Of a stretch of 64,000 nt of DNA, positions 5,748 through 64,000 are shown piece after piece. The notes under the pieces are model-generated. The model was not told the DNA's origin. It did not search any database and saw only the letters and a program-made list of their open reading frames with translations. A program made the translations under genes and the position numbers. The stretch is taken from positions 14,455-78,454 of IMG/VR virus record IMGVR_UViG_2934563053_000002; one strand, given 5' to 3'. This stretch comes from a virus. Taxonomy: Duplodnaviria > Caudoviricetes. Position 1 is the stretch's first letter. Each line of letters begins with the position of its first letter.

Positions 5748-6470
5748 ATGCCAAACCCCTGCCCCACCCCGGACAAGGTCCGCTACGCCACCCGAGCCGG
5801 CGCCGAGCAAGGCGCCCACCGCGCCCGGCTCCACTTCGACGACACCGTCTACCCGTATGCGTGCTCGTGCACGTGGTGGCACCTGTCCAAGAACCAGCCC
5901 GAGTCCACCCCGAGCCCGGAGGACGCGAGCCGTGCCGCCATCGAGCGGGTAGCCGCTCTCCCCAGCATCGCCTTCCGGGAGATCGTCGCCAACGACGCAG
6001 CCGGGAAGGGAGACCGTGATGAGCGTGGGGCACTGCGCGCTCCGGTGAACTTGACCCGTTGGCGTCGGGCGCTTGGCGAACTGCTGCACGACGTGCAAGA
6101 GCAACTGACGTCGAGCCGCTGGAACAAGACGTTGGCCGCGCAGGACTGGCGGAAGCGGGCGACCGGCTACCAGGAGCAGCTGCTGCGACGGCAGGTGGAG
6201 TGCAAGCAGCTGCGGGCGGATGCGCACGCGGTGGGTGTGTCGAGCCGTGTGGCGTCGCGGCGGCGTGTGGTGGATGCGGCTCGGTTGTCGGGCGCTCCGG
6301 TGAAGGAGTTGCGGCGGCTGGCTGGCGAGATGGCGGTGGATCGGCTGATCGAGGCTCATCGGGGCGAGTTCGATGGACTGCTGGCTGAGGAGTACGCCGC
6401 GGTGGATCTGCCGCTGCCGGAGGGCGTCATGCAGCGGATGACGGAGGCGGAAGTGGGAGCGGCGTCGTGA
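5748..6470 (+). CDS. Hypothetical protein with N-terminal CPTPDK..Y.C.C.WWHL zinc-binding motif
   Basis: Motif and GAGGA RBS. Confidence 0.7.
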   Translation: MPNPCPTPDKVRYATRAGAEQGAHRARLHFDDTVYPYACSCTWWHLSKNQPESTPSPEDASRAAIERVAALPSIAFREIVANDAAGKGDRDERGALRAPVNLTRWRRALGELLHDVQEQLTSSRWNKTLAAQDWRKRATGYQEQLLRRQVECKQLRADAHAVGVSSRVASRRRVVDAARLSGAPVKELRRLAGEMAVDRLIEAHRGEFDGLLAEEYAAVDLPLPEGVMQRMTEAEVGAAS

Positions 6471-6919
6471 GCCTGCGCCTCGTGCCGGTCCGCTTCCGCC
6501 AGGCCCAAGCGTTCTGTGCGATGTGGCACCGGCACCATCCGGCGCCCCGCGGCATGGTCTTTGCCGTCGGTGTCGCCGATCAGCACGGTGTGCTTCGCGG
6601 TGTCGTTGTCGTCGGCCGGCCCGTCGCCCGGCACCTGGACAACGGGCAGACGCTGGAGGTCACCCGCACCGTCACGGACGGCACGGTCAATGCCAACTCG
6701 ATGCTGTACGGCGCGGCGACAAGGGCGGCATGGGCGCTGGGCTACACCCGGTTGATCACGTACACGCAGGCGGGAGAGAACGGTGCGAGCCTGCGCGCGG
6801 CCGGGTGGCGCGTGCTCGCTAAGCGGCCTGCCACCCCGGGCTGGGACCGGCCGTCCCGCCCGCGTGAGCCCCGCGGTACGGAGCACATGCCGCGAACGCT
6901 GTGGGAGGCCGCCTCATGA
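6467..6919 (+). CDS. XF1762 family (Mom-like GNAT fold) protein
   Basis: HRHH, GVVVVGRPVARHLD, LEVTR, NANSMLYGA, LITYT..ENGASLRAAGW. Confidence 0.8.
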   Translation: MSLRLVPVRFRQAQAFCAMWHRHHPAPRGMVFAVGVADQHGVLRGVVVVGRPVARHLDNGQTLEVTRTVTDGTVNANSMLYGAATRAAWALGYTRLITYTQAGENGASLRAAGWRVLAKRPATPGWDRPSRPREPRGTEHMPRTLWEAAS

Positions 6920-7521: not shown

Positions 7522-8211
7522 ATGACCGAGCCCAACAGTGCTGCGCTCCTCGCTAGTAGCTGCGATGCCTGCCAGCACACTCTCAACTGGCACCGCAACG
7601 ACGTCGGCTGCACCGTCCCTCGCTGCGCTTGTGGACGCTTCCAGCCCAGCATCCCCGAGACGCCTGCTGTGCGCCCGCGGGACGGCCGTACAGGCGCTCC
7701 GGCGTCTCCGTGCCCGCCGGACGCCCCGAGCGGGCCGCAGACGGGCGCACAGGACCGCGAGGCCCCAACTCATCCCGCCCGCCTCCGCGCTGTGGTGCTG
7801 TCCGCTCTCGCCGGCTGCGGTGTGCAGGTGCCCGCCGCGCGTGCGCAGGCCGCTGCGGAGACCGTGCTCGTGCACCTGGCCGACGCGCAGCAGCCCGGCG
7901 GCGGCGCAGTCCGCGTCACCACCGGCAGCAGCGAACGCCGCGACCGGTACGCGGCAGCAGTCCGCCGCCTCCACGAGACCGGCGGCCTCTACGCCCTCGA
8001 CGCAGGCGAGGACACCCGCATCGCCGACGCCGTGACGCCCGTGGCCGACGCCGAGCAGCACGCGGTGTACCGGCTGCTCGCCGAGTCCCGCACCCGCGAA
8101 ACCCGCCTGCGGGACGCACTCCAGCGCATCGACTCCAACATCGCGAACGGCGGGGCATCCGACGGTCTCCTGATCCGCTCCATCCGAGACATCACAAGGA
8201 GTGCACTGTGA
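7522..8211 (+). CDS. Hypothetical protein
   Basis: GGAG RBS; N-terminal CxxCxH..H..C..CxC. Confidence 0.6.
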   Translation: MTEPNSAALLASSCDACQHTLNWHRNDVGCTVPRCACGRFQPSIPETPAVRPRDGRTGAPASPCPPDAPSGPQTGAQDREAPTHPARLRAVVLSALAGCGVQVPAARAQAAAETVLVHLADAQQPGGGAVRVTTGSSERRDRYAAAVRRLHETGGLYALDAGEDTRIADAVTPVADAEQHAVYRLLAESRTRETRLRDALQRIDSNIANGGASDGLLIRSIRDITRSAL

Positions 8212-8609
8212 CCACCGACGAACGACGCAAGCGGTTCCGCACGGCGGTGTACCAGGCCATCGAGCGAGGAGACGACCCCGCCGACGCCGCCAAGGCCGTA
8301 TCCGACCAGGCGCAGCACGAGACGGTGACACGCCTCCGCGACGAGCGTGACCGGGCCATCCGCATCGCCGTGGCCCTGGAGAACCAGCTCGCCGCCGTGC
8401 AGGAGTACGCGCGGCACAGCGACGACACCGCACCCCGCACCCGCGAAACCATCCTCCGCCTCACCGACGGCTACCAGCCCGACGCCAGCGCCCCACAGCA
8501 CCTCGCCCGCGGCAGCAACGCCGAGAAGTGCCCCGCATGCGTGAGCACCAGACGGTCGTATGTGCCCCTCCTCCTCTGCCCCGGACCCGACGACGGAGCC
8601 GCATCGTGA
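8208..8609 (+). CDS. Hypothetical protein
   Basis: AGGAG RBS, GTGA overlaps; NAEKCPAC..LLCPG. Confidence 0.6.
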   Translation: MTTDERRKRFRTAVYQAIERGDDPADAAKAVSDQAQHETVTRLRDERDRAIRIAVALENQLAAVQEYARHSDDTAPRTRETILRLTDGYQPDASAPQHLARGSNAEKCPACVSTRRSYVPLLLCPGPDDGAAS

Positions 8610-9055
8610 CCGTGTCCCGGGAACTAAGCGAAACCGAACTGGCAGTCCTCCGCAGAACCGCGGACGGCGACACCTACAGCGAGATCGGCCACCACATCAA
8701 CCTCACCACCAAGAGCGTGGCGAACGTAGCCACCCGCGTCATGCGCAAACTCGGCGCGGTCAGCATGCCCCACGCCGTCTACCTCGCCACCCGCACCGGA
8801 CTCCTCGACGCCCCCCTCGACAACCCCCTGACCGCCCGGCAGCTCGAAGCGCTCCTTTGGACCGCCCTCGGCTACACCGCGCAACACGCCGCCGACCACA
8901 TGGGCGTGTCCCTCGACACCGTCCGCTGGCTCCTCCGCACAACCCACCACCGGCTCGGCGCCCGCACCGCCACCCACGCCGTCGCCCTCGCCATGGCCGC
9001 CGGCCTCATCACCCCAGCCCACATCACCACCCGGCGACAGGAACACGCCGCATGA
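8606..9055 (+). CDS. Tandem LuxR-type HTH regulator (no receiver domain)
   Basis: Two LuxR HTH repeats: LSETELAVL..G.T..EIG..KLGA..HAV and LTARQLEAL..G....A..MGVSLDTV..RLGA..HAV. Confidence 0.85.
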   Translation: MTVSRELSETELAVLRRTADGDTYSEIGHHINLTTKSVANVATRVMRKLGAVSMPHAVYLATRTGLLDAPLDNPLTARQLEALLWTALGYTAQHAADHMGVSLDTVRWLLRTTHHRLGARTATHAVALAMAAGLITPAHITTRRQEHAA

Positions 9056-10152
9056 CCAGCACCCCGCTCGCCCAGACCCGGGTTGAGCCCAGCCGGGCTC
9101 TCATCCGCGCGCTGCAACACCAGATCGAGCAGCTCGCCGACAGCATCTCCGGCAAAAACGCCCACCGCACCGCAGCCGGCTGGGTGTACATGACCTGCGT
9201 CCACGCCTGGGCCGCCGACCACCACCTCATCGACGGCCGCCTCCACCGCGACGCGCAGCCCGCGCGGCAGCAGTTCCTCACCCAAGGCGGCACCAACCTC
9301 GCCTGGCTCACCTACGCCGTCGCCGACACCGCCGTCCACCCCTGCGCCTGGACACTCCTCGACCCCGCCTACGACAACCCCGTCCGCCACGCCTCACCCA
9401 GCGACACCGCCGCCAGCCGCCTACTCGACTGGTGGGCCGAGGACGCCCCCGCCCTCGCCTACCCCGTCGACACTGGGCCCGGCACGATCACCGGCTGGAT
9501 CCTCGGCGACCTCCTCCAACTCGTCACCGACGAACGCCGTCTCGCCCACGCCCTCGCCCAATCCCCCTGGTGGCTCGCCGACGGCATCCTCGACCGCACC
9601 CTCATCCCCGCCGCCCGCGACTTCCGCGACGAGACGCTCCGCCTGATAGACCCCACCTGCGGCACCGGCCACTTCCTCATACGCGCCATCGACATGCTCT
9701 GGGAGCTGCACACCACCGGCAGTCTCGCCCCGCGGCAGATGCGCATGGACGGCGTCACCAGCTGGACCCCCATACCCCCCGCCGAGGCGGCCCGCCGCAT
9801 CCTCGCCGGCGTCGACGGCATCGAACTCGACCCCATCACGGAGGCGGTGTGTCGCCTGCGCGTCACCGTCTACCTCGCGCACCTGCTGCACGAGGCCGGC
9901 GCCCTGCCCGGACCGCTGCGCCTGGACGCGATACCGCACCGGCTGATGCCCCGGATCAGCGTCGGCGACAGCCTCCTCGCGGGGAAGGTGTCCCGTGCCG
10001 AGTACGCCCGGCTGCGCCCTGCCCAAGCCCGCATCGTCAACCTCGGCACCGACGCACCCGCAGATGGCGAGGCTCCGGACGGGGAGACGGCCCCGATCCC
10101 CGTCGTGCTCCCCCAGGGCACCGAGCGCGAACAACTCGCGCTCTTCTCCTGA
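9052..10152 (+). CDS. PglX (BREX-2)-like N6-adenine methyltransferase N-terminal fragment, lacking catalytic NPPY
   Basis: Motif I LIDPTCGTGHFL, GIELDP, VGDSLL; upstream motifs resemble PglX (WVYMT..ADHHLI, LLDPAYDNP, ILGDLLQ, LAQSPWW..ILDRTL); no NPPY/DPPY. Confidence 0.7.
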   Translation: MTSTPLAQTRVEPSRALIRALQHQIEQLADSISGKNAHRTAAGWVYMTCVHAWAADHHLIDGRLHRDAQPARQQFLTQGGTNLAWLTYAVADTAVHPCAWTLLDPAYDNPVRHASPSDTAASRLLDWWAEDAPALAYPVDTGPGTITGWILGDLLQLVTDERRLAHALAQSPWWLADGILDRTLIPAARDFRDETLRLIDPTCGTGHFLIRAIDMLWELHTTGSLAPRQMRMDGVTSWTPIPPAEAARRILAGVDGIELDPITEAVCRLRVTVYLAHLLHEAGALPGPLRLDAIPHRLMPRISVGDSLLAGKVSRAEYARLRPAQARIVNLGTDAPADGEAPDGETAPIPVVLPQGTEREQLALFS

Positions 10153-10160
10153 CCCCCTCC

Positions 10161-10235
10161 GCCCGAGTCGCGCAACCGGAAGACGCACCCGCCTTAAAAG
10201 CGGACCCAGTGCCGGTTCGAATCCGGCCTCGGGCA
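10161..10235 (+). tRNA. tRNA-Leu, anticodon UAA (decodes TTA; bldA-equivalent), short variable loop, no encoded CCA
   Basis: Acceptor GCCCGAG/CTCGGGC with discriminator A; D arm GCG..GG..CGC; anticodon loop CT-TAA-AA (10193-10199); T arm GCCGG-TTCGAAT-CCGGC. Confidence 0.88.
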
Positions 10236-10263
10236 CAACCCACACGACGCTGAAGGGAACCCG

Positions 10264-10863
10264 ATGAACAACCCCGGCCCGAGCCCCGACTGCGGCGAGG
10301 GATGGGCCTTCGCCCGACGAGTACTCACCGACCCCGCCCGGCAGCGCGAGACGCTCGCCAGCCTCGACCGGGCTCTCGACGGCATCACGCCGACCCCTGT
10401 CCCCGACACCTTCCGCGCCCGCCAAGGAGCAGCCATGACCGACCCCACCGTGACCGACCTGCTGCGCGAGCTGTACGAGTACGCGGGGCACGGCTACCAC
10501 TGCGACAACGTGGCCCCCGAGACAGCCCAGACCTACGAGGAATGGCTGTCCGACACGGCCCACGACCGGCCCGCCGTAGCCGCCGCCAAACAGGCAGCGC
10601 GCGCCCAGCAGCCCCCGCCACCCGGTTCGACCCGCGAGCAGCTCCCCGACCACCTCCTCGCACTCATCGACGTGCCGCCGTACACCAGCACCGCATGTGA
10701 GACGGCCCACGAGTGCGAGCGCGTAGTCGACGTCCACACCGAGCACGCCGAGGAACTCCGGACAGCGGCGGCCGGCCAGCTTCACGACCGGTGCCGCCGT
10801 AACAACAAGTTCACCGGCGTCACCTGCGGCTGCGCCTGCCACCAGGCGAAGGAGCAGCCGTGA
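10264..10863 (+). CDS. Hypothetical protein (alternative start 10435)
   Basis: YTSTAC...CRRNNKFTG..C.C.CH; internal GGAG RBS. Confidence 0.6.
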   Translation: MNNPGPSPDCGEGWAFARRVLTDPARQRETLASLDRALDGITPTPVPDTFRARQGAAMTDPTVTDLLRELYEYAGHGYHCDNVAPETAQTYEEWLSDTAHDRPAVAAAKQAARAQQPPPPGSTREQLPDHLLALIDVPPYTSTACETAHECERVVDVHTEHAEELRTAAAGQLHDRCRRNNKFTGVTCGCACHQAKEQP

Positions 10864-11000
10864 CCCGCGTCTACCGGTGGCTGACCACCCCAGTCGCCGT
10901 GCCCCGCTGGGTACGCATCGGGGTCCTCACCGCATCCGCCTTGCAATGCGCCGCCTGGCTACTCCAAGGGGCGACCTGGGCCCTCGCCCACCTCACCCGC

Positions 11001-11043
11001 TGACCCCCTGCCCGGCCGTTGGGGTCGGCCGGGCAGGGGGTCA
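11001..11043. terminator. Perfect 18-bp hairpin ending the early operon
   Basis: TGACCCCCTGCCCGGCCG-7nt-CGGCCGGGCAGGGGGTCA. Confidence 0.75.
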
Positions 11044-11295
11044 CGGTTCAATAACGGAAGATTTGGCCGTGAGCGCGTGAAAGCGTAGGCAGCCCGTACT
11101 CAGAGCGTAGCCACAACACGCAACAGACCTCAGTTGGCCGAAGCCCTGACGCAGACCACCACGTCGAGCCCGCAGGCGAGCGATATGCTGCTCCTGCTTG
11201 ATCTCCCTCGCACCAACTTGCCGCCCAGCGCTGTAAGTCGGCGGCGGCGAGCCCCCGGCCAACCACCGGGAGGTTCACCGAGGGAGGGAGAGCAC

Positions 11296-11427
11296 ATGGA
11301 CGATGAAGAAATGGGCATGCCGCCGGAGCCGCCGTGGAGCAGCTTCGAGCGGTGGTCGATCATCCTCGCGATGTTAGGCGTGCTCATGGCAACCATCTCC
11401 GTGGTGGCGCAGTTCGCGATGCGGTAA
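11296..11427 (+). CDS. Small single-TM peptide containing a TTA codon
   Basis: GGAGGGAG RBS; 43 aa; hydrophobic WSIILAMLGVLMATISVVA; TTA at 11374; hairpin terminator at about 11515-11551. Confidence 0.6.
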   Translation: MDDEEMGMPPEPPWSSFERWSIILAMLGVLMATISVVAQFAMR

Positions 11428-11697
11428 CCCACCGCACGCCCGGGAGCGACCGACAGCCGCTGCACACGCAGCGAGCCCGGTCTCTTGATAGGCGACCGGG
11501 CCCGTGAACTGCAAGAAGGGCCTGTCCTGGTGCCCGCCAGGCGGGCCCTTCGCCATGCCCAGCGTTCAAGGACTGTGCTACCCGTACTTGCTCGCGAGCA
11601 TGTACCCAGACCATAGCACGGGCATTTGTGGGAATCATGAAAACAGTAAGCGAAAGCCGCAGGTCAGAACCACCGAACATCCCACCGGCTGGGCCGC

Positions 11698-13074
11698 TCA
11701 AGCTGGCAGGTTCCCGGCGAGGTACTCCATCGCGCGCTCATCCAGCTCTGCCGCACACCGCAACCCCCGAGCCCGGAACCGGCCCAAATCCCGCCGCATA
11801 CCCCGCACCGCCTTCACCGTCCGCGCCGACCGCACACCCTCCATGTGATCCAGGGCCTGATGCCACGTCGCGCACGCCTGCTCGATCCCACCCCGCTTGA
11901 GCTGCATCTCCGCACTCGCCACCAGATCGAGCGCCACGATCCGCGCATACGTCCCGGACGGCCGCGCGCCGGCCGCCCGGCCGTACTGCTCAGCCGCCGC
12001 CCGGTGATCGCCCAACGTCTCGTGGACCTTCGCCGCCCGCGAATACACCGACGCAGCCGGCGGCCCCCACGCCATACCCCAGAACGGCACCTCATCGCCA
12101 GGCGCGTCCTCCAGCATGCGACGCGCCCGCTCGGCCTCGACCAGTGCTGTGCGCCGCTGGCCGGACTTCGCCAGCGTGTGGGCGTGGACGATGCGGAACA
12201 GCGCCTCCGTCCGCGAGTCGACCCGCCCCTTGGCCCGGTTCAGTCCCGTCTCCGCCAGCCCAAGACAGTGCTCCGGCCGACGCAACTTCAGCCCCTGCAT
12301 CGCCATCGTCCGCATCACGAACCCGTCATGCCCGACCAGCCCGGACTCCTCGGCGAGCCTGAACGACTGAAGGTAGTACCGCTGCGCAACACCCTGCTGC
12401 CCGGCGTCATACGCCTTCCAGCCCAGCAGATGCACACCACGGGAAGCCGCAGACAGCATCTGCTGGCGCGCCTCCTCAGTGCGGAACCGGGCCCGGCACA
12501 ACGGCGCCACATCGTCCCGCAGATACTGCACGAGCGCCGTCCGACCGTGCTGCCCACCATGCCGCTCGTCCATATCCGAGAACATGCCGATCATGTCGCG
12601 GACCGCGGCGACCTCGACCATGCCGACAACAGTGCCGGAGCGCGCCGCGACCGTGCGCTCCGCGGCGTCTCTCACGGAGGCCAGCGGGAGAGCAGCGGCG
12701 GCCACCGAGTAGGCGGACGATGCGAGGAGGCGGCGTCGGTCCACTTCGTTCCTCCACAGCGGTAGCAGCACATCGATCGGATCGGGCCCCAACGTGAGTC
12801 CGACGTCCTCATCCTCCTCCGGCCAGTCGAGGCCGATATCGGCCGGGGCCAGCAGCCGGCCCAGCAGCCGAGACAAGGCCACCGCCAAGTACCGGGCCGT
12901 CATAGCCGACGGGAGGGTCCCGGCGACCCAGTGCGCGATCGCTGACTTGTTCGTCCGCAGATGGTCCCCGCACTCGGCAGCCACGGCGCGTACCGCGCGA
13001 GCCACCGCATCGTAGGGCAGACCGGACTCCTCAATGACGTCTCTGAGCTGGGTGTTCGGCTTCCGCGTGGTCAT
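11698..13074 (-). CDS. Large Streptomyces-type transcriptional regulator (N-terminal HTH, C-terminal TPR-like helices)
   Basis: RKPNTQL..LRTNKSAIAHW..G..P, DRRRLL, DERHGG, LGWKAYDAG..AQRYY. Confidence 0.85.
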   Translation of the reverse strand: MTTRKPNTQLRDVIEESGLPYDAVARAVRAVAAECGDHLRTNKSAIAHWVAGTLPSAMTARYLAVALSRLLGRLLAPADIGLDWPEEDEDVGLTLGPDPIDVLLPLWRNEVDRRRLLASSAYSVAAAALPLASVRDAAERTVAARSGTVVGMVEVAAVRDMIGMFSDMDERHGGQHGRTALVQYLRDDVAPLCRARFRTEEARQQMLSAASRGVHLLGWKAYDAGQQGVAQRYYLQSFRLAEESGLVGHDGFVMRTMAMQGLKLRRPEHCLGLAETGLNRAKGRVDSRTEALFRIVHAHTLAKSGQRRTALVEAERARRMLEDAPGDEVPFWGMAWGPPAASVYSRAAKVHETLGDHRAAAEQYGRAAGARPSGTYARIVALDLVASAEMQLKRGGIEQACATWHQALDHMEGVRSARTVKAVRGMRRDLGRFRARGLRCAAELDERAMEYLAGNLPA

Positions 13075-13204
13075 GCAGCTCCTGCCGTTAAACCGGATAA
13101 ACCACGTGCCCGCTCGTAACCGTACCCACGGACAGCCCACGGGAGTTCACTGTTCGTCAGGCCCCCGCACCAGCGGGTGGCGCAACCTCAGGGAGGGAAC
13201 ACCC

Positions 13205-13519
13205 ATGACGACCGCGATCACCCCCACCGCGCAAGCGGACCCGCTCGCCCCGCGCCTGCTGCCGGGCGTCGGCGCGCTGTCCCACTCGACTGCCGCCCCC
13301 AGCACGGGGGCAACCCGCCCGTTCGGGCTGACCTGCACCACACCCCTCGCCGGCAACGCCGCCGCCGCGTCCCTCGACGGCCTCACCTACGACCCGCAGC
13401 GCCAGGTCAACGTCCACCACGACGGTGCCCCTCTCTCCAGGGACGACCTGATGCTCCACGCCGGCACGAGCCAGAACACCCAGGCCGACCACCAGTGGTG
13501 GACCGACAAGGACCAGTGA
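13205..13519 (+). CDS. Graspetide (ATP-grasp-modified RiPP) precursor peptide
   Basis: GGGAGGGA RBS; leader motifs RPFG and YDPQRQ; Thr/Ser...Asp core TSQNTQADHQWWTDKDQ; directly upstream of ATP-grasp ligase. Confidence 0.88.
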   Translation: MTTAITPTAQADPLAPRLLPGVGALSHSTAAPSTGATRPFGLTCTTPLAGNAAAASLDGLTYDPQRQVNVHHDGAPLSRDDLMLHAGTSQNTQADHQWWTDKDQ

Positions 13520-13525
13520 TATCCG

Positions 13526-14494
13526 ATGCCTGCTTCTGTCGCGATCATCACCCGTGATCAGGACACAGCCGCCGACCTCGTCGTCCACGAACTACGCAAG
13601 CGCGACGCGGTCATCTACCGGTTCGACCTGGCCGACTTCCCCACCCGGATGACCCAGGCCGCCTACCTGATCCCCGGCCGCGCCCGCTGGACCGGAGCGC
13701 TCAAGGGGCAGCACCGCGACGTGGACCTCTCCGGACTGACAGCCGTCTGGTACCGCAAACCGTCCACCTTCCGGCTGCACCAGGGCATGTCTGCGACAGA
13801 GCAGGAGTGGGCGGCCACCGAAGCCCGAGCCGGCTTCGGTGGCCAGCTCGCCGCCCTCCCAGGCGTCCGCTGGATCAACCACCCGCACCGCAACGCCGAG
13901 GCCGACCACAAGCCGCTCCAGCTCGCCCGCGCCGACGCCTGCGGACTCGCCGTCCCCGAGTCGCTGCTGACCAACGACCCCGACGCAGCCCGCGCGTTCT
14001 GCCACGCGCACCACGACACCGGGGTGATCTACAAACCGCTGCATGGTGGCCCCGCAAACGAGAACGGCCAGCCAGTCGCCCTCTGGGCAACCAGCGTCAC
14101 CGCCGACGACATCACCGACGGAGTGGCCCGCAGCAGCCACCTCTTCCAGGCTCGGATCCCCTGCGCCTACGCGGTCCGACTCACCGTCGTCGGCGAGCAG
14201 ATGTTCGCTGTCCGTATCGACGCCCCCGAGGACTCCGCAGCCGTCGACTGGCGACAGGATCACGACCAGCTCCGCTACACCCCCATCGACGTGCCCGACG
14301 ATGTGGCCGCGGGGACGCGCCAACTCTTGCAGTCCTTCGGCCTCACCTACGCAGCCATCGACTGGGTCGTGACCCCCGACGGCCAGTGGACGTTTATCGG
14401 AGACCTGAACCCGAACGGGCAATGGGGCTGGATCCAGGCGCACACGGGCCTGCCGATCGCCGCTGCCATCGCCGACGAACTCGCCCGGGAGTAG
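13526..14494 (+). CDS. ATP-grasp ribosomal peptide maturase (graspetide synthetase)
   Basis: D.TADLVV, RFDLADFP, AVWYRKP, WINHP..AD.KPLQL, LLTNDP, IYKPL, HLFQ, DWRQD, DLNPNGQWGW. Confidence 0.93.
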   Translation: MPASVAIITRDQDTAADLVVHELRKRDAVIYRFDLADFPTRMTQAAYLIPGRARWTGALKGQHRDVDLSGLTAVWYRKPSTFRLHQGMSATEQEWAATEARAGFGGQLAALPGVRWINHPHRNAEADHKPLQLARADACGLAVPESLLTNDPDAARAFCHAHHDTGVIYKPLHGGPANENGQPVALWATSVTADDITDGVARSSHLFQARIPCAYAVRLTVVGEQMFAVRIDAPEDSAAVDWRQDHDQLRYTPIDVPDDVAAGTRQLLQSFGLTYAAIDWVVTPDGQWTFIGDLNPNGQWGWIQAHTGLPIAAAIADELARE

Positions 14495-14496
14495 CC

Positions 14497-15621
14497 GTGA
14501 CCATCGCCGCCGACCACTCCGAACAGTTGCGTCACCGCCTCGTCGACCAGCTCGTCGACCGCGGATACCTGCACGACTCCCGCTGGATTGCTGCGTTCCG
14601 CGCGGTACCGCGGGAAGCGTTCGTGACGCGATACAAGGTGCTCTCACCGGACGGCACCCACCAACACCACGACCTCGCCGACCCCGAACACCTCGACGAC
14701 GCCTTGGCCGTCGCGTACTCCGACGCGCCCCTCATCACGCAGACCGACGCGTGTGGCACGCCGACGTCGTCGAGTACGGCCCCCAGTCTGATGGCGCTCA
14801 TGCTCGAAGCCCTCCAGGCGGAGCCCGGCATGAGGGTGCTGGAGATCGGTACTGGTACCGGCTACAACGCGGCGTTGCTCTCACACGCTCTCGGGGCCGA
14901 GGCGGTCACCACAGTCGACATCGACCCAGCCCTCACAGCCGCGGCGGAGGAGGCGCTGCACCGAGTCGGCTACCGCCCAACGGTGGCCGGCCGAGTTGCA
15001 GGCCACCGGGAGCGGGGGCCGTATGACCGGCTGATCGCCACATGCGGAGTCGCACGAGTCCCCACGGCTTGGCTGGAGCAGTTGCGGCCCGGCGGTTTGG
15101 TCCTGGTTAACATCGGGTTCGGTCTCGTGCGCCTCACGGTCGGGGCCGACGGCACGGCGACCGGCAGGTTCCTGGACTACGCCAGCTTCATGCAGGCCCG
15201 CGAGGACACCGCCACCCAGGCGGCCACCGCTCGTGACGCACTCGCCCTCACCGACCGCTCCGCGCCCCGCACCGACGCTGTGTTCCCGGATTGCCTCGAC
15301 GAGCGGCCGTTCGTGTTCCTGCGCTCGGTGATGATGCCGGGCGTCCACCAGGTCGTCGAACATCTTCCGGACGGGCCGGAGTACGTCCTCGCGGATCACG
15401 CCAGCGGTTCATGGACACGGGCCCGACGGTGTGGCAGGGGCGCCGCTGTCGCTCAGGGCGGGCCGCGTCGGCTGTGGGATGAGCTGTGCAAGGTGGCCGC
15501 TTCCTGGAGTGCGCATCACCGGCCGCCGTTGTCTTCGTATGGACTGACCGTGTATCCGGACGGACGGCATGTGCTCTGGCTTGGCAGCCCAGATGGGCCG
15601 TCCTGGCCGCTGTCTGGCTGA
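14497..15621 (+). CDS. PIMT-like protein L-isoaspartyl O-methyltransferase of graspetide cluster
   Basis: AFRAVPRE.F, SSSTAPSLM..ML, VLEIGTGTGYNAALL, YDRLIATC, C-terminal QGGPRRLWD..YGLTV. Confidence 0.9.
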   Translation: MTIAADHSEQLRHRLVDQLVDRGYLHDSRWIAAFRAVPREAFVTRYKVLSPDGTHQHHDLADPEHLDDALAVAYSDAPLITQTDACGTPTSSSTAPSLMALMLEALQAEPGMRVLEIGTGTGYNAALLSHALGAEAVTTVDIDPALTAAAEEALHRVGYRPTVAGRVAGHRERGPYDRLIATCGVARVPTAWLEQLRPGGLVLVNIGFGLVRLTVGADGTATGRFLDYASFMQAREDTATQAATARDALALTDRSAPRTDAVFPDCLDERPFVFLRSVMMPGVHQVVEHLPDGPEYVLADHASGSWTRARRCGRGAAVAQGGPRRLWDELCKVAASWSAHHRPPLSSYGLTVYPDGRHVLWLGSPDGPSWPLSG

Positions 15622-15685
15622 CCGCATACGACGACGCCCCGCCCAACCGGGCGGGGCGCTCACACGTGGCGCGGGACGAGCGCGG

Positions 15686-15958
15686 TCACACGGCGGACGC
15701 CAACTGCTCCCACATCCACGGCGTGTGGGTGGTGTGGCGCCGCTGGCGTCCGCAGGTGCGACAGTGCGTCGGTCGCCAGCGCGCCTGCGGGGTGAAGGTG
15801 TGGAGCGGCTTGAGCCAGTGGCCTTCGGCTTGCAGGTGGTCGCCCCGGTGCTGGCCGCAGCGGTCGCAGATCCAGTAGCCGTCCGAGCCGTCTGGCTGGA
15901 CCGGGCCTTCACGGAACCAGTGGTCCGTGACCAACGGCCGGGCAGTCACGGCCGCCAC
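15686..15958 (-). CDS. Small Cys/His-rich protein
   Basis: CDRCGQH, CRTCG..H motifs. Confidence 0.5.
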   Translation of the reverse strand: MAAVTARPLVTDHWFREGPVQPDGSDGYWICDRCGQHRGDHLQAEGHWLKPLHTFTPQARWRPTHCRTCGRQRRHTTHTPWMWEQLASAV

Positions 15959-16356
15959 TCCTCGTAGTAGTCGGGGTGGTCCGCGTAAGCGGAGGCCAGA
16001 TCGCGGCAGGCGTCCCAGTAGGCGGCGCGAAGCGAGCTGAGGGACCGGGCGGGCTCCTTTTCCGCCTCGAACGTCTCACGGTCAAGCTGCATGTGTTCCT
16101 CGCACTTGCTCACGATTCGCCGCTTGGCGTCGACCTCGGCGAGGACCCGGGCCGGATCATGCCGGGCGATGTGGGTGGCGGCATAGGGCCAAGTGCGGCG
16201 GACGACACCCACGCCACTCGCTGCGCGGACCTCGCTACCGTCGGAGTCGGTCACGTTCCACGAAGCCCCGTGAGGTTCACGCGTGGCAGCGTGTTTCGCG
16301 GCCTGTGCGTCTTCGTCGAGCCGCTCCCGCAGGAACGCCACCAGGTCAACCGTCAT
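15946..16356 (-). CDS. DUF6221 family protein
   Basis: DLVAFLRERLDED...HIARHDPARVLAEVDAKRRI...LA..YADHPDY.EEWRP. Confidence 0.85.
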   Translation of the reverse strand: MTVDLVAFLRERLDEDAQAAKHAATREPHGASWNVTDSDGSEVRAASGVGVVRRTWPYAATHIARHDPARVLAEVDAKRRIVSKCEEHMQLDRETFEAEKEPARSLSSLRAAYWDACRDLASAYADHPDYYEEWRP

Positions 16357-16490
16357 CGGGCACCGCTCTCGTCATAGGAGGGGACGATCTCGCCGTCATC
16401 GCAGCACTCGGCGGTCTCGTCCTGGACTTCCTCACCGCACGAGTTGCACCACCAGTAGACCGGCTCCAGCTCCTCGCAGTCAGCCGTCAT
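16353..16490 (-). CDS. Small acidic Cys-rich protein (45 aa, below ORF-track cutoff)
   Basis: Manual translation MTADCEELEPVYWWCNSCGEEVQDETAECCDDGE...; overlaps both neighbours. Confidence 0.6.
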   Translation of the reverse strand: MTADCEELEPVYWWCNSCGEEVQDETAECCDDGEIVPSYDESGAR

Positions 16491-16803
16491 CCCGCTGCTC
16501 CTCTGCTTGACCCATGCGCGCGGGCCGATCCTTCCAGGCGCCGGAGTGGCCCCGCACGATGTCTTGCACCACGCCGGCCGACATGCCCAACCGCTCTGCG
16601 ATCTTCCTGATGGGGACAGGGGGAGTCTCGGCCCGCATCTCCAGCACCAGTTCGCGACGCTCCTTGTGCCACTCCTTGGTCTTCTTCGCCTGAAGTGCCA
16701 GCACCTGGTTGCGGGCGCGCACCCGCGCCTCTCGGTCCGGGATGCGGTCGACCTCGTTCAGGGCGTCTGACACCCGTTCTACCTCCTCGTCCGCGCCGTT
16801 CAC
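16480..16803 (-). CDS. Small HTH repressor
   Basis: GAGGAG RBS; PIRKIAERLGMSAGVVQDI; divergent from palindromic operator. Confidence 0.75.
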   Translation of the reverse strand: MNGADEEVERVSDALNEVDRIPDREARVRARNQVLALQAKKTKEWHKERRELVLEMRAETPPVPIRKIAERLGMSAGVVQDIVRGHSGAWKDRPARMGQAEEQRDDG

Positions 16804-16848
16804 GCCCGCTCCTCTCCGGGGTCCGGGAGGCGGTCCGCTCCGACTCGC

Positions 16849-16887
16849 TTGTATGGAGACCATACGCGGTGTACGGTCTCCATACAA
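16849..16887. promoter_or_regulatory. Palindromic operator pair
   Basis: TTGTATGGAGACC-13nt-GGTCTCCATACAA perfect inverted repeat in divergent intergenic region. Confidence 0.75.
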
Positions 16888-16992
16888 CGGAAGAGGGTTC
16901 CGCTCTCCATCCGTATGCACAACGGCCCCGGCCGGGCTCTCACACACCGGCCGGGGCCAGCCATCCACCTGCTCTGAACAGGACGGACAGCC

Positions 16993-17295
16993 ATGCCGGA
17001 TGCTATCGGCACCACCCAGCCCCCCGACAGTCCGACGCAACGCGTCGTCCAACTCCTCACCGCCACCCTCACCGGACTCGACGGCACGATCAGCCGCGCC
17101 GGTGGGCCCGGCGTCCTCGACGTGCCGCTGCTCCTCGGACTCCACGCCCGCCGTATCCACGGCAGCAACGGACCCGCCGTGAGCGACGACGTGGAGGCCG
17201 CCCTCCGCGTGATCGGCAACCCGCACGAGCCGACCAGCCCGCGCCTGCTGCGGCGCCGCATCCAGATCGCCCTCGACGAGGGAGTGACGCTGTGA
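16993..17295 (+). CDS. Hypothetical protein, first gene of spread-like operon
   Basis: AGGA RBS; MPDAIGTTQPP start; followed by coupled small ORFs 17292-17453 and 17453-17653. Confidence 0.6.
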   Translation: MPDAIGTTQPPDSPTQRVVQLLTATLTGLDGTISRAGGPGVLDVPLLLGLHARRIHGSNGPAVSDDVEAALRVIGNPHEPTSPRLLRRRIQIALDEGVTL

Positions 17296-17452
17296 GCCCG
17301 CTCGCCTGGAACACGCCGCCCGCCGCGCCGATCCGCGAGGACCGCATCGCCGCCGAGCCGGCCACCCTGGACCGCTGCCGCGAGGACTACACCGGCACCA
17401 CCGACGCCCGCCGCCGAGACGAGACGTCCACCGCGGAAGGGCAGGCCGCCTG

Positions 17453-17653
17453 ATGGCCCTCTTCCGCAGCGACCGCGAACTCGCCGACACCAAGTACAGC
17501 GGCAAGCAGTCCGCCTCCGACCGGGCCTCCGCCAAGCGGCGCGCCGACCACCGCAAGCCCGGCGGCAGCGCCGACCGTGCGCTCCGCGCCGGCCAGGACT
17601 GGGACGACGCCCAGCGGCACGCCGACATCCGCCGCAACCGCTGGCGCAGCTAA
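17453..17653 (+). CDS. Small basic protein
   Basis: TGATG overlap; SASDRA..RR..H...A.RAGQDW; hairpin follows. Confidence 0.6.
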   Translation: MALFRSDRELADTKYSGKQSASDRASAKRRADHRKPGGSADRALRAGQDWDDAQRHADIRRNRWRS

Positions 17654-17729
17654 CCCCCGAACCGGCCGGGCCCGCCTACCACCCCCAAGGCGGGCCCGGC
17701 CACTCCGACGACCACCAGAGGAGCACCAC

Positions 17730-17909
17730 ATGACCCTCAGCAAGCTCGCCGACCAGGTACAGAGCGCCGTGCGCCTCGGCGACGCCATCGGCAAGACCGA
17801 GGACGAGATCCACGCCGACGTCCACGCAATCGTCGGCCACCTCCCGCAGGCCGACCTCGACGCAATCCAGCGGATCGTCGCCGACGACGTCGCCCACACC
17901 TGGCGCTGA
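17730..17909 (+). CDS. Hypothetical protein
   Basis: GAGGAG RBS. Confidence 0.6.
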   Translation: MTLSKLADQVQSAVRLGDAIGKTEDEIHADVHAIVGHLPQADLDAIQRIVADDVAHTWR

Positions 17910-17993
17910 CCGGCTGCCCGCGGCGCCCGGCCCGACCCGGGCGCCAAGGAGAACCGGCCAGCCCCCACCCCACCAGCCACCCGGAGGAACCAC

Positions 17994-19106
17994 ATGCGCT
18001 CGCTCACCCGCGGGCAAACCGTCGTACTCACCGTCGCCGCCATCCCCATGGCCGCCGTCGGTATCGGCGGTGCCATCGGCACATACGCGAACGCCCGCAG
18101 CGTCCTCCACCGCAGCGAAACCGCCCTCGGCGTCGTCTCCGCCGGCGAAGGCGCCACCCTCGTGGCGGCGTTGGTCATGCTCGGCCTGACGATGCTCGGA
18201 CAGTCCGCCCCCATAACGATCCGTGCCGCGCTGTGGCTCCTCCCCGGCGCCGCCTCCGTCATGGGCCTCGCCATCGCCCCCAGCCCCCGGGAAGCGGTGG
18301 TGTTCGCCATCACGCCGCTCGCCATGACCGTCTCCGCCGAAGGGCTCGGACTCCTCGCCCGCCGCATCGTCGTGCACCACAGCGGTACGGACATGGAAGC
18401 GCAGCGCCGGAACGCCACGACCATGCGTCGAATCGCCTACCTCCAGGCCCGCGCCGAGAACCACCCGAACCCACGGGTACGGAAGCGGTCCGCGCTGGAG
18501 GCATGGCGGCTCATGTCCCGCGTCGGCGCGGGCGACACCGAACTCGGCTCAGGACTCATCTCGGTGCAGCGCCAGCGGCTCACCACTGGGGCGGACGCGG
18601 CTCTCAGCGCGATGCTCACCGGCTCACACCAGCCCACCCCCAGCGAGCCCCCGGCGCTGCCTGAGCCGAGTGAGCCGCCAGCTGAGCCGGACCATGAGCC
18701 CGCAGATGAGCCGGACTTCGACACCTTCGCCGACGGCGCGCTCCGCCTCGCCGCCCCCGAGCCCCGGCCCAAGCCACACCGGCCCGTCCTGCCCCCGCCC
18801 GATGCGGTCCTCACCCCGCTTGACCAGCACGTCTCACGTGAGCCCGTCGCGAGCCCGGCTGAGCCAGCACCCGACCTCACCACCGAGACACCCCACGAGC
18901 CCACGCCCGAGCCCACCGGTGAGCCCGAGCCCACCAGTGATCCGATCGAAGCTCAGGTCATCGAACTCACGAGCCGACTCCGCCGCGGCGACCGGCTCAC
19001 GAAAACCGCCGCCGCCGAACTCCTCGGCGTGAGCCCCGCCACCGCCGGCCGACGACTCAAGGCCGCCAAGGACCGGCTCACCGACGGCACCGGGATGTAC
19101 CTGTGA
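17994..19106 (+). CDS. SpdB/DUF2637-like membrane protein with C-terminal HTH
   Basis: Four TM segments (GIGGAIGTY.N, ALGVVSAGEG, AVVFAITPLAM...EG), Pro/Glu linker, LTKTAAAELLGVSPATAGRRL. Confidence 0.65.
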   Translation: MRSLTRGQTVVLTVAAIPMAAVGIGGAIGTYANARSVLHRSETALGVVSAGEGATLVAALVMLGLTMLGQSAPITIRAALWLLPGAASVMGLAIAPSPREAVVFAITPLAMTVSAEGLGLLARRIVVHHSGTDMEAQRRNATTMRRIAYLQARAENHPNPRVRKRSALEAWRLMSRVGAGDTELGSGLISVQRQRLTTGADAALSAMLTGSHQPTPSEPPALPEPSEPPAEPDHEPADEPDFDTFADGALRLAAPEPRPKPHRPVLPPPDAVLTPLDQHVSREPVASPAEPAPDLTTETPHEPTPEPTGEPEPTSDPIEAQVIELTSRLRRGDRLTKTAAAELLGVSPATAGRRLKAAKDRLTDGTGMYL

Positions 19107-19335
19107 GCCCCGCCGACACGCCGCCGCTGTCCGCCCCGGTCACCACCGTGCCCACCCGCTCCGGCACCCGCGCCGCGATACACCGCCACGACTACCACCA
19201 GCCCAGCCCCCGTGGCGGCTTCACCCGGCACGGCTACGCCTGGCGCTGCCCTACCTGCACCCACACCGCCACCGGCTACACCACCTACACCCCCGCCCAC
19301 ACCGACGCCTCCCACCACCACTGCCAGGAGCAGCC

Positions 19336-20016
19336 ATGACCACCGGCCTCTTCATCCTCGCCGCGGCCGTAGCGCTGCTGTGGCTCCACCCCCGTGACCG
19401 CCACCGGCCCGGCCCCGGAGCGTCCGCCACCGCCCGCGCCCGCCAACTACGCACCCCCCTCGTCCGTCTCGCCAGCCTGCTCGGTATCTCCACCCGCCGC
19501 GGCCGGGCCGCCGCCCGCTTCGAGGCGGGGGCCGTAGGCGAGCGCGCTACAGCCCGGCTCCTTGCCCCTCTGGTGGGGGAGGGGTGGTCCCTGCTCCATG
19601 ACAGGGCCCTGCCCGGCAGCCGCGCCAACGTGGACCACCTGGTCATCTCCCCGACGGGGGTGGTCCTCGTCCCGGACTCCAAGCGCTGGTCCGCCCGCTA
19701 CGAGCTGGCGGTGTGGGAGGGGCGGTTGTGGCACGGCGGGCGGGATGTCACCGACCGGCTCAACGGGCTCCGGCACGAGACCGCCGCCGTCGCCCGCCTC
19801 CTGGGCGTGCCGGTGGTGCCGCTGGTGGTGATGCACGGCGCCCCCCTGCCCGAGGCGGGCCTGCTGGTGGCCGGTATTCGCATCGTGCCTGCCAACCGTG
19901 CCGTCTCGGTGCTACGGCGTATCGGGGCCGCTCCCGGGCGGCAGAATGCTGCGCTGCTACGACGCCGCGCTGCCCGCCTGCTGCCGCCCTACCAGGAGAG
20001 GCCGGGGCATGGCTGA
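19336..20016 (+). CDS. Membrane-anchored NERD (nuclease-related) domain protein
   Basis: N-terminal TM; GAVGERATA, LHDRALPGSRANVDHLVISPTGV..DSK.W. Confidence 0.85.
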   Translation: MTTGLFILAAAVALLWLHPRDRHRPGPGASATARARQLRTPLVRLASLLGISTRRGRAAARFEAGAVGERATARLLAPLVGEGWSLLHDRALPGSRANVDHLVISPTGVVLVPDSKRWSARYELAVWEGRLWHGGRDVTDRLNGLRHETAAVARLLGVPVVPLVVMHGAPLPEAGLLVAGIRIVPANRAVSVLRRIGAAPGRQNAALLRRRAARLLPPYQERPGHG

Positions 20017-20737: not shown

Positions 20738-20755
20738 GTCCTGGAGTCCTCCGTC

Positions 20756-23884: not shown

Positions 23885-23900
23885 GGGGGAACAGTATCGC

Positions 23901-60080: not shown

Positions 60081-60476
60081 GTGCCTGACAACCCCGACAG
60101 CCCCGTCCAGTCCCTGCGCCGCCAGTTGCGCGAGCACCTGCACCGGCACGGACGCCGCAGCCTCGGCTCGCCGTTCCTCAACGCCTTATGGAACCTGACG
60201 GGCCCCGGCCCGCGGGCCGACTGCCTGCGGCGCGTCGCCTGGCACGCCCGCCACCAGAAACTGACCTGGCCGGCCAGCCGCGGCACCCGCTACGCAGCCG
60301 ACCTCCAACAGGCCGCACGACTCCACAGCGATCTCGGCGCGTTCGTGGTGCCGCTGGACAGCCTGCCCGAGGACAGCGGGCAGCAGTTGGAGGCCGCCCT
60401 GGTCCTCCTCGCCGCCTGCCCCGACCGCCGCGCCGCACTGCCTGTCGAGATCGCCCAGCCGGGAGACACCACATGA
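60081..60476 (+). CDS. Hypothetical protein containing a TTA codon
   Basis: AAGGA RBS; TTA at 60186. Confidence 0.5.
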   Translation: MPDNPDSPVQSLRRQLREHLHRHGRRSLGSPFLNALWNLTGPGPRADCLRRVAWHARHQKLTWPASRGTRYAADLQQAARLHSDLGAFVVPLDSLPEDSGQQLEAALVLLAACPDRRAALPVEIAQPGDTT

Positions 60477-62602: not shown

Positions 62603-64000
62603 ATGGCCGACCCGATCAAGAAAATCACCCTGCGAGACGGCAGCACCCGCTGGCGATTCGTCGTCGACGCCGGAGTAACGCCGGAGGGAAAACGCAAGCA
62701 GATCACCGGCACGAAGGACACGAAAGCCGAAGCCGTCGCCGAGCGCGCCCGCATCGTCCACCAGCGCACCGCCGGCACCCTCGTCGTCCCCTCGAAGATG
62801 ACCGTCGACGAACTCCTCGACACCTGGCTCAAGACCGCCACCCGCGATGTCGAGGAGGGCACGGCCACCAACTACGACAACGCCATCCGCCCCATCCGTC
62901 GCAGGCTCGGGCACATGCGGGTGCAACAGCTCACGGAGGAGGACGTCGAAGCGTTCATCGACTGGATGGTCACCGAGGGCAGGCAGCGCGGCGGCAAGCC
63001 GGGCACTGGCCTGAGTGTCCGCTCCGCACGGTTGTCCCTCGGTCGGCTGAGGTCGGCCCTCACTCTGGCGGTGCGCCGCGGCATCGTGGTGCGGAACGTG
63101 GCCGAGCACGTGAGGGTTTCCCGGGAGGCGCAGCGCAAGGCCGCGTCTGTCACCAAGACCCGCGGCGCGCCGTGGGATCAGGACGAGGTGCGGCAGTTCC
63201 TCGCGGGCATCGTCAACCACCGGCTGTGCGGCCCGATGATGTTGGCGTTCATCGCGGAGCGGCCGGCTGAGGTGTGCGGCACCCGGTGGGCAGAGGATGT
63301 CGACCTCGACGCGGGCACGATCGCCGTGGGCGACAACACCCGCACCATCGTCTACGACCGCACCCTGGAGAAGGGCAAGCGCAACAAGGTCGTCGAGAAG
63401 ACAGCCAAGACCGAAGCCGGCCGCCGTGCCCTGCCCCTGCCCATCCCCGTACTCCGGGCGCTCTCGGTGGCTCGCACGGTCCAGGCGCAGGAGAAGGAGT
63501 ATGCGGGCCGCGGCTACGAGGACAGCGGCTACGTCCTCGTCGACGAGTTGGGGAGGCCGTTCAAGACGGACAAGCTGCGGCGCGAGGCGTACAAGTTGAT
63601 GGATGCGACGGGCGTGCGGCGGGTGCGGCTGTATGACGCGCGGCACGCGGTCCTCACGTGGATGGCGAACAACGGCGTGCCCGACACCGTCGTCTCCGCG
63701 TGGGCCGGGCACACCGACCTGTCGTTCACGAAGCGGGTGTATGTGCACTCCGACCCGCACAGTCTCCGGGCCGGGTCGGAGAAGCTGGGGGAGCTGCTGG
63801 CGAGTCCGGAGCCGCGGGTGCCGGATCTGCCGGCGCCGCGGGCGGACGCGGAGCGGGTGGAGTGGTCGCCGGGTGGGCGGCGGTTGCGGACGCACTGCCG
63901 CCACGGGCACGAGTACACGCCGGAGAACACCTACATCGCTCCGGGGACCGGGTACCGGCAGTGCCGGGCGTGCCGGAGCGGCAACCAGCAGTCGGGGTAG
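62603..64000 (+). CDS. int: Tyrosine integrase with C-terminal Cys/His zinc-binding extension
   Basis: Arm-binding N-terminus (GKRKQ); catalytic ERPAEV, AKTEAG, RLYDARH, WAGH...VY; tail [14 protein letters not shown]...CRAC. Confidence 0.92.

Follow-up and report, generated by a model that had tools for sequence, protein, structure and literature searches.

The tRNA encoded by bldA is the textbook tRNA developmental switch of Streptomyces, and the argument built on it rests on bldA being the sole decoder of UUA. The bldA tRNA has been described as subject to temporal regulation and as less than fully active while vegetative hyphae are young (PMC10732093, PMC13350457, PMC4255298). Phage tRNAs for a rare host codon are a kind already known, and the architecture considered here has been annotated before, in the Mycobacterium phage Kykar. 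In the main texts of the literature, whose supplementary files possibly list such genes, no Streptomyces tRNA reading UUA was found described that is phage-borne or additional to bldA; within the same scope, short-armed leucine tRNAs were not found described as a recurrent class. The sole related remark, on a cluster of mycobacterial tRNAs, mentions a tRNA-Leu(TAG) with a short loop (PMC6582537). The present study deals with a tRNA(UAA) gene of 75 nt with a type-I (short) variable loop, located at 10161..10235 on the plus strand of a 64,000-nt stretch of viral DNA (positions 14,455 to 78,454 of the provirus record IMGVR_UViG_2934563053_000002); this whole stretch is hereafter called the window. 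Our analysis suggests that the prophage brings a second, structurally different UUA decoder into its host, and that this decoder is apparently under selection.

ARAGORN called a tRNA-Leu(taa) at 10161-10236 on the plus strand, the sole tRNA in the window and also the sole tRNA of the whole 78,454-bp provirus record. The Rfam model RF00005 matched 10161-10235 over its full length (1-71) and scored 49 bits (E 1.9e-7), the gathering score being 29. The initial annotation had described a complete cloverleaf with anticodon TAA and discriminator A and had named ARAGORN as a check; both programs agree with that description. The acceptor stem reads GCCCGAG/CUCGGGC, with the discriminator A at 10235, and U8, C9 and A26 stand between the stems. 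The D arm is GCG-C-AACCGGAAGA-CGC, in which C13.A22 forms a non-pair within the D stem; this non-pair, usual for leucine tRNAs, had gone unmentioned in the initial annotation. The anticodon stem, CCCGC/GCGGA, carries at its top the C-A mismatch noticed at the outset, now placed at C27.A43, and the loop CUUAAAA holds the anticodon UAA at 10195-10197. The variable loop is indeed as short as first described (CCCAGU, 6 nt, with U48 as its last base), and the T arm reads GCCGG-UUCGAAU-CCGGC. CCA is not encoded in the gene, the next bases being CAA.

The gene directly upstream encodes a PglX-like protein of 366 aa (9052..10152, plus strand), and when this protein was used as a query, a single close relative (88% identity) emerged, in a prophage of Streptomyces qinglanensis CGMCC 4.6825 (NZ_FOGO01000007.1). 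In this sister prophage, a tRNA 93% identical to ours again lies directly downstream of the PglX-like gene. The two prophages share the early region, mostly at 85-100% amino-acid identity; the structural genes and a cassette at 10.9-15.6 kb are not shared. From the sister host, 59 tRNAs were retrieved, including the prophage copy (L084) and a canonical 87-nt bldA (L079) that has the long arm and the loop CUUAAAC, is intact and lies on another contig than the prophage. Since the sister lysogen keeps its canonical bldA, the phage tRNA is to be seen as an extra UUA decoder and not as a replacement. The integration site was likewise read from the sister prophage, our own record being trimmed so that the att sites fall outside it. 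The integrases of the two prophages are 97.8% identical, and that of the sister lies 114 nt from a tRNA-Pro(GGG). The sister prophage, about 89 kb in size, is bounded by a perfect direct repeat of 46 bp that corresponds to the 3′ end of this tRNA gene, and tRNA-Pro(GGG) is called intact in the sister lysogen, which indicates that the target tRNA is rebuilt on integration.

The long (type-II) variable arm is absent from the prophage tRNA, whose loop measures only 6 nt. According to the review by Giege and Eriani (PMC9976931), the E. coli leucyl-tRNA synthetase (LeuRS) needs A73, A15-U48, G18G19, A20a and tertiary pairs joining the D loop to the T loop. The same source gives the anticodon and the long variable arm as dispensable for this enzyme, the arm being characteristic of tRNA-Leu and yet no identity element; it adds that tRNALeu variants truncated of both arms are still charged, and that human mt-tRNALeu(UUR) is charged without a long arm (PMC9976931). 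The prophage tRNA holds U8, A14, A15-U48, G18G19, A20a, the T loop UUCGAAU, A73 and C2-G71, and its D arm is of the leucine type, with a 3-bp stem, G18G19 in register, A20a, U8-A14 and A15-U48. When the acceptor, D and T arms were compared with those of the 59 host tRNAs, raw identity was non-discriminating (Arg 39, Leu 37-38). Therefore, we adopted a test of the D-arm signature AA-N(1-4)-GG-N(1-2)-AGAC on unique tRNAs. The signature occurs in six of the seven unique leucine tRNAs of the sister host, the exception being bldA itself, in none of its 47 unique non-leucine tRNAs, and in 3 of 612 unique non-leucine tRNAs of viral loci. Furthermore, the anticodon loop of the prophage tRNA has A36A37A38, where host bldA has C38. 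MiaA uses this A36A37A38 motif. The motif, together with prior i6A37 modification, is also given as a determinant for TrmL methylation (PMC9976931).

Covariation was assessed in an alignment of the prophage tRNA with 27 distinct high-GC relatives that have a leucine-type D arm (28 sequences in total), on a cloverleaf that we specified. Members of a second family (L135, L025, L138 and L132; see below) and all loci below 64% GC were left out, and six sequences with fewer than 11 of 12 acceptor-plus-T-stem pairs (L276, L015, L016, L021, L023 and L062) were dropped. Standard pairs fill 532 of the 532 stem cells, and 13 of the 19 pairs show compensatory change on both sides. None of 500 shuffles reached any of the observed covariation measures, and slid controls paired in 31-46% of cells. 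No variation occurs at U8, A14, G18 or G19; conservation is at least 90% at A15, U48 and A73, with A73 present in 26 of the 28, and nine of the 28 keep C38 as in bldA. This covariation and the conserved tertiary and identity nucleotides exclude a decaying pseudogene. Nor is the short variable loop a sign of decay, since the leucine-type D arm and the published LeuRS identity elements are present and are kept in the relatives. Judged from the aligned sequences, the tRNA is under selection, and the selected tRNA probably accepts leucine. Taken as a whole, the prophage element is very probably a functional leucine-accepting tRNA, with charging predicted from its identity elements. The initial view of a genuine UAA-anticodon tRNA in a prophage of a Streptomyces-type host is thus supported.

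How widely such tRNAs occur was followed through pattern scans of IMG/VR, two of which, together with a search of 401 Streptomyces genomes, yielded many short tRNA(UAA) genes. One of these two scans (leucine-type D arm, CTTAAA, short spacer) returned 57 IMG/VR contigs, and ARAGORN called 54 of them as tRNA(taa) of 73-79 nt, in loci of 34-73% GC. Among those loci, 21 have a GC content of 65% or more, and each of these, as fetched, holds no tRNA other than the tRNA(UAA). A further scan, neutral to arm length, gave 115 long-armed and 2 short tRNAs among the 117 matches listed. Short arms are thus recurrent in phage tRNA-Leu(UAA) and not established as a rule. A DNA search of window positions 9000-12000 against 50,697 phage records gave no match. 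As a separate observation, other leucine isoacceptors in the viral loci chosen for a short tRNA(UAA), a biased sample, are often at most 80 nt long too (short against long: caa 16/7, tag 19/12, gag 4/5, aag 4/1, cag 2/2). One annotated candidate, the 'tRNA-Leu(ctc)' of Streptomyces phage Keanu (gene 42; L326, MT723933.1 30937-31009), is not a relative. ARAGORN calls it tRNA-Glu(CTC), and its annotation is probably a slip, as the anticodon implies glutamate.

In the 401 Streptomyces genomes, the pattern CTTAAAN{14,19}GGTTCGA gave 20 matches in 19 genomes. The reversed control matched at a similar rate, and for this reason only ARAGORN-confirmed matches were counted: 13 loci in 12 of the 401 genomes, the seven other matches not being tRNAs. 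The leucine-D-arm family is found in seven genomes (G001, G018, G090, G101, G203, where it occurs twice, G246 and G263). The second family occurs in four genomes (L331 in G334, L336 in G336, L345 in G218 and L328 in G082) and also in the IMG/VR locus L025; its members are of 73-76 nt with anticodon UAA and an ordinary AGCUCAGUGGCAGAGC D arm, not a leucine-type one. In three genomes, a tRNA-Ile(UAU), which decodes another very rare codon, is found about 0.4 kb away from the member of this second family. A third type of short tRNA(UAA) is present in one genome. Three of the short tRNAs are chromosomal (L130 in G018, L131 in G090 and L129 in G101), with the loop CUUAAAC, and sit directly upstream of a gene for an FAD-binding monooxygenase. 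In G101 and G090, the short tRNA lies 0.3 kb and 1.1 kb downstream of canonical bldA, respectively, so that two UUA-reading tRNA genes stand side by side; no phage genes are found in the 3-kb loci. The neighbouring FAD-monooxygenase genes were considered as possible TTA carriers, and they contain no TTA.

The anticodon of the prophage tRNA matches the rarest codon of the host. We propose, with a probability of roughly 0.45, that the phage supplies a UUA decoder that is independent of bldA and acts during phage gene expression. The tRNA would be transcribed with its neighbours in a polycistronic RNA, from which host RNase P and 3′ processing enzymes would excise it; the host CCA-adding enzyme would then add CCA, and host LeuRS may charge it, as its sequence features predict. 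A working leucine tRNA of this kind would read UUA, and possibly UUG by wobble. The gene at 60081-60476, and perhaps the open reading frame (ORF) at 11296-11427, could then be translated whenever phage genes are on, whatever the developmental state of the host. The three roles put forward in the initial annotation, namely activation of TTA genes in the host, release of the phage's own from developmental timing, and substitution for a tRNA that host defence has cleaved, all stand as candidates.

The position of the gene is relevant to this proposal. The PglX-like gene ends with TGA at 10150-10152, leaving exactly the 8-nt spacer to the tRNA that the initial annotation had given. Genes 43 and 44 flank the tRNA within a run of 20 genes that share one orientation and often overlap (record coordinates 14355 to 25317), in a region devoted to replication and DNA modification. 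A search of 8000-13600 for sigma-70-like promoters gave none. An 8-nt spacer within a 20-gene run that has no promoter-like site argues for expression with the lytic genes rather than in the lysogen. Downstream, a GC-rich hairpin on the plus strand at 10997..11046, about 760 nt past the tRNA, has an 18-bp perfect core stem and a fold of -49.6 kcal/mol (z -5.67; none of 200 shuffles as good). The transcription unit to which the tRNA belongs probably ends at this hairpin, a putative terminator after which no T tract is evident. Among the relatives, the tRNA is co-oriented with its immediate neighbours, where called, in our locus and in 22 of 22 high-GC viral loci. The PglX-like family is directly upstream of it in four viral loci (ours, L303, L279 and L267) besides the S. 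qinglanensis prophage, and a LuxR/sigma-like family holds that place in L273 and L288. A different phage group has the tRNA two genes downstream of a gene for an amidase, a probable endolysin.

The codon demand of the phage itself is very small. A TTA census over 114 predicted genes (22,722 codons) found two in-frame TTA codons (13088 and 60186) and 140 TTG codons. The TTA at 60186-60188 is codon 36 of a plus-strand gene at 60081..60476, which encodes a 131-aa protein of unassigned function beside the immunity/integrase region. A further TTA at 11374-11376 is codon 27 of a 43-codon plus-strand ORF (11296..11427) that the gene caller had skipped. This ORF encodes a hydrophobic, possibly membrane-spanning stretch without a family match and has a strong Shine-Dalgarno sequence, comparable in strength to that of a graspetide precursor gene further downstream; it is perhaps a real gene, judging from this Shine-Dalgarno sequence. 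The TTA at 13088 was considered as a codon of that graspetide precursor and rejected: it lies upstream of the likely start ATG at 13206, which is preceded by GGGAGGGAA, and is probably non-coding. The two in-frame TTA codons noticed initially (11374 and 60186) are therefore both real candidates to which the full census adds only this probably non-coding one, and the small phage demand first suspected from them is confirmed. The phage terminase has no TTA.

In a comparative count, TTA occurs 2 times in 21,843 codons of this record, 2 times in 21,445 codons of the sister prophage, once in 7,681 codons of the sister host flanks, never in 4,731 codons of eight other Streptomyces loci, and 4 times in 57,948 codons of 22 related tRNA-bearing loci; the corresponding TTG frequencies are 6.1, 5.9, 4.8, 2.1 and 3.0 per 1000. 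The TTG value of the 22 related loci thus falls within the 2.1-4.8 per 1000 of the host samples, which are small. Codon 36 of the gene at 60081-60476 is TTA in both tRNA-carrying prophages, ours and the sister. In eight other homologues it is TCA, TTG, CTA, GTA, GTG, or GTC (three times), and one homologue without TTA at this codon belongs to a tRNA-free provirus whose completeness is rated at 96%. This pattern fits a link between the TTA and the tRNA.

Several points weigh against a selected UUA decoder that serves the phage. At the level of the tRNA, the 49 bits fall at the low end of the 49-76 bits of the sister-host tRNAs, and the C27.A43 mismatch together with the 6-nt variable loop could reduce activity. 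As to timing, the place past the amidase gene in the other phage group suggests a late region there, so that expression would not always be early. As to demand, two credible TTA codons in about 22,700 (0.09 per 1000) are near the level of the host flanks, and one synonymous change would make the tRNA dispensable. Compensation for codon usage in bulk, whether of UUA or of UUG, is not supported, as neither TTA nor TTG is enriched in the 22 related loci. The co-occurrence of TTA and tRNA is weak, because two close prophages amount effectively to one evolutionary event, and codon 36 is variable in any case (L, S or V). Besides, the product of the gene at 60081-60476 gave an AlphaFold2 model, from a 9-sequence alignment, with a mean predicted local distance difference test score of only 46.5, and an ESM Atlas search with it returned no usable match.

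With so small a demand in the phage, a target outside the phage becomes conceivable. The tRNA might serve host TTA mRNAs, such as those of adpA and of secondary-metabolism regulators, in infected or lysogenic hyphae and so shift development in favour of the phage. The TTA of adpA is described as conserved in streptomycetes (PMC4255298), and an NsdA-family tetratricopeptide repeat regulator, a homologue of a developmental regulator, is encoded on the minus strand 1.5 kb downstream of our tRNA (11698-13074; 377 bits against a cut-off of 75), with an NsdA-like gene near the tRNA in L295 too. However, the lack of an evident promoter of its own, within a run of replication and DNA-modification genes normally repressed in a lysogen, weakens this explanation, and a benefit to a lytic phage from host developmental genes has no support in this analysis. 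Furthermore, the sister prophage has the tRNA without the cassette that carries the NsdA-family gene. We regard such reprogramming of the host as unlikely.

Alternatively, the short-armed tRNA could replace or outlast a host tRNA reading UUA or UUG that has been inactivated by a tRNA-targeting nuclease or modifier; the absent long arm, together with A38 instead of C38, would then confer insensitivity. Phage tRNAs with altered anticodon loops have been proposed to escape anticodon nucleases (PMC10264068), and the phage loop CUUAAAA does differ from the CUUAAAC of host bldA. The recurrence of the leucine-D-arm short tRNA(UAA) in the 57 IMG/VR contigs across 34-73% GC, and the place of our tRNA beside a PglX-like, possibly counter-defence, gene, are in keeping with such a spare. 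Yet C38 stands as in bldA in 9 of the 28 relatives, and neither these analyses nor the literature consulted revealed a nuclease directed against tRNA-Leu(UAA) or against long variable arms. The loss of a tRNA for a codon used at about 0.1 per 1000 would hardly halt phage translation, and PADLOC on eight neighbouring proteins matched nothing besides PglX. Protection against a host defence of this sort thus seems quite unlikely.

A third explanation is that the tRNA-like gene, acquired through recombination, is a passenger or relic: it would mark a mosaic junction and be under no selection for decoding. The homology with the sister prophage collapses just downstream of the tRNA, the codon demand is negligible, and the minimum free energy fold of the single sequence is not a cloverleaf, though its z is -2.55. 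The complete pairing of the stems and the compensatory changes among the 28 relatives, the invariant or nearly invariant tertiary and identity nucleotides, and the recurrence of the tRNA in unrelated gene contexts make a relic very unlikely. Finally, tRNA-dependent lysogeny, in which the phage would integrate into bldA, destroy it and carry its own copy, is hardly credible even though a tyrosine integrase is present, the T arm and 3′ acceptor share 90-96% identity with canonical bldA of several Streptomyces, and the scheme is reported as established in mycobacteriophages, including a tRNA-Leu-CAA case in phage Gaia (PMC10865867): it is contradicted for the sister prophage, whose attB is a tRNA-Pro(GGG) of a different isotype that is rebuilt via the 46-bp core, and whose host has bldA intact on another contig.

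A further reading is that the loss of the long arm is itself adaptive and no sign of decay. A streamlined type-I tRNA-Leu(UAA), still charged by LeuRS, would then be maintained by phages and by a few Streptomyces chromosomes. It could escape the limits placed on bldA in young hyphae, such as processing that is slow, modification, or recognition of the bldA body by some factor, and infection or lysogeny could so uncouple UUA decoding from development. We consider this reading unlikely. Were it true, prophages of this kind could suppress bldA phenotypes and switch on silent TTA-gated clusters.

The carrier of the element, a prophage of 70% GC in a Streptomyces-type host, is temperate and siphovirus-like. 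It is filed as a virus record, which starts and ends at gene boundaries, and a gene call based on GC at third codon positions gave 114 genes. Pfam and PHROGs identified, in window coordinates, a terminase (27145), portal (28747), capsid (32191), tape measure (36840-42077), endolysin (52684) and holin (53793), along with two XRE-type regulators, and a tyrosine integrase (62603..64000, plus strand; Pfam and PHROG) closes the right end of the provirus record. The initial designation as a prophage is confirmed by these genes. A C-terminal stretch of the integrase (residues ~421-462) also matches PHROG HNH-endonuclease families (E 1.4e-12). Towards the left end, Pfam and PHROGs place a DnaC-like loader at 875-1609, and PHROG 1384 a Mom-like DNA-modification protein at 6467-6919 (E 2.1e-36). 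Two DUF6221 genes (15946-16356 and 23313-23705; Pfam and PHROGs) are on the minus strand, set within runs of plus-strand genes.

Within the co-oriented run of the tRNA, a regulator with a LuxR/GerE-type helix-turn-helix, sigma-region-4-like, is encoded at 8606..9055 on the plus strand (Pfam GerE, 5.3e-17; PHROG 3282 'sigma factor'). It is followed by the PglX-like gene. The label PglX-like used in the initial annotation is fair, given the PADLOC match to PglX (E 1.2e-31) and the 102 bits of the NCBIfam BREX-2 PglX model. The match covers only profile positions 54-324 of 1185, the N-terminal quarter, and its score compares with a cut-off of 400; identity as a full PglX was considered and is rejected, the full length being about 1,200 aa and the score below the family cut-off, so that the protein is not a PglX. 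No Pfam or PHROG match was obtained for it. PglX-type methyltransferases combine an S-adenosylmethionine (SAM)-binding motif I with a catalytic motif IV (NPPY/F/W). The 366-aa protein has the SAM-binding motif DPTCGTGHF, and no [ND]PP[YFW] (NPPY-type) motif is visible in its sequence. Rather than acting as an enzyme, it could serve as a decoy for, or an inhibitor of, Pgl/BREX defence.

The first gene past the tRNA (10264..10863, plus strand) encodes a 199-aa protein of unassigned function, 78 of whose 199 residues are matched in the sister prophage, and a 47-codon ORF (10860-11003) stands just ahead of the hairpin. The cassette lacking in the sister prophage occupies window positions 11698-15621. 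Besides the NsdA-family gene, it holds a putative precursor of a ribosomally synthesized and post-translationally modified peptide of the ATP-grasp-modified kind (graspetide), likely at 13206-13519 (TIGR04186, 30.5 bits against 25), an ATP-grasp maturase at 13526-14494 (396 bits with TIGR04187, against 350) and, at 14497-15621, a PCMT-type methyltransferase (342 bits with TIGR04188, whose cut-off is 380). Thus, a graspetide-type gene cluster and a homologue of a developmental regulator lie together within a prophage.

If the tRNA is active, the phenotypes of bldA mutants, predictions of TTA-based regulation and the heterologous expression of TTA-containing clusters could hinge on prophage content. 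It would also be a natural bacterial-type leucine tRNA without the long arm, in line with a LeuRS that does not need the arm. If it serves only one or two phage codons, it would be an ordinary phage tRNA.

Human mt-tRNA-Leu(UUR) likewise has the anticodon UAA. It resembles the prophage tRNA in lacking the long arm and is nevertheless charged, by the mitochondrial LeuRS, with A14 and A73 given as the main identity elements (PMC9976931). In contrast to the prophage tRNA, it is organellar, unrelated in sequence and relaxed in its core, and it shows only that charging of such a tRNA is possible. With tRNA-dependent lysogeny, as described for the phages Fionnbharth and Gaia (PMC10865867), our prophage shares a temperate actinophage carrier, a tyrosine integrase and a single tRNA gene; both defining features of that system, insertion into a host tRNA gene of the carried kind and a common core too short to rebuild it, fail in the sister prophage, where the site is tRNA-Pro(GGG) and the 46-bp core rebuilds the tRNA. 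UUA codons in the terminase gene of Streptomyces phage Hau3 have been proposed as a sensor of the host state (PMC10732093), which similarly ties phage expression to the availability of the UUA-reading tRNA. That proposal relies on an absent host tRNA as the trigger of bypassing, whereas here the phage brings the tRNA, and its terminase has no such codon; a term search of the Hau3 paper's text and one of its sections gave no mention of a phage-borne tRNA (PMC10732093).

The closest counterpart in a phage is the tRNA-Leu(UAA) of Kykar (MG962370, gene 27), which is also of 75 nt, with anticodon UAA and a short variable loop, in a high-GC actinophage. In both cases, a high-GC phage carries a tRNA for a very rare A/U-rich codon. 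The Kykar tRNA differs in sequence (about 75% identity over 88% of the query) and in its D stem, GCC/GGC, and its gene lies among minor tail genes on the opposite strand and is annotated simply as tRNA-Leu.

With bldA, the prophage tRNA has in common the anticodon UAA, the discriminator A, an acceptor that begins GCCCG and the likely host genus, in addition to the similar T arm and 3′ acceptor. In contrast, it is of 75 nt with a 6-nt variable loop where bldA is of 83-87 nt with a long arm; its D arm is of the general leucine type with G18G19 where bldA has a AAUGCAGA D loop; and it carries A38 and sits in a prophage where bldA carries C38 and sits at the chromosomal bldA locus. Orthology to bldA was considered and is rejected, as the body differs from that of L079 and of the canonical bldA of L129, L131, L134 and L136 and the location is in a prophage. 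The term 'bldA-equivalent' used in the initial annotation therefore holds for the anticodon only; it does not extend to structure (75 against 87 nt, the D arm, A38 against C38) or to location. Unlike in the case of Kykar, the cognate host tRNA in Streptomyces is a developmental regulator, and the phage copy is possibly regulatory.

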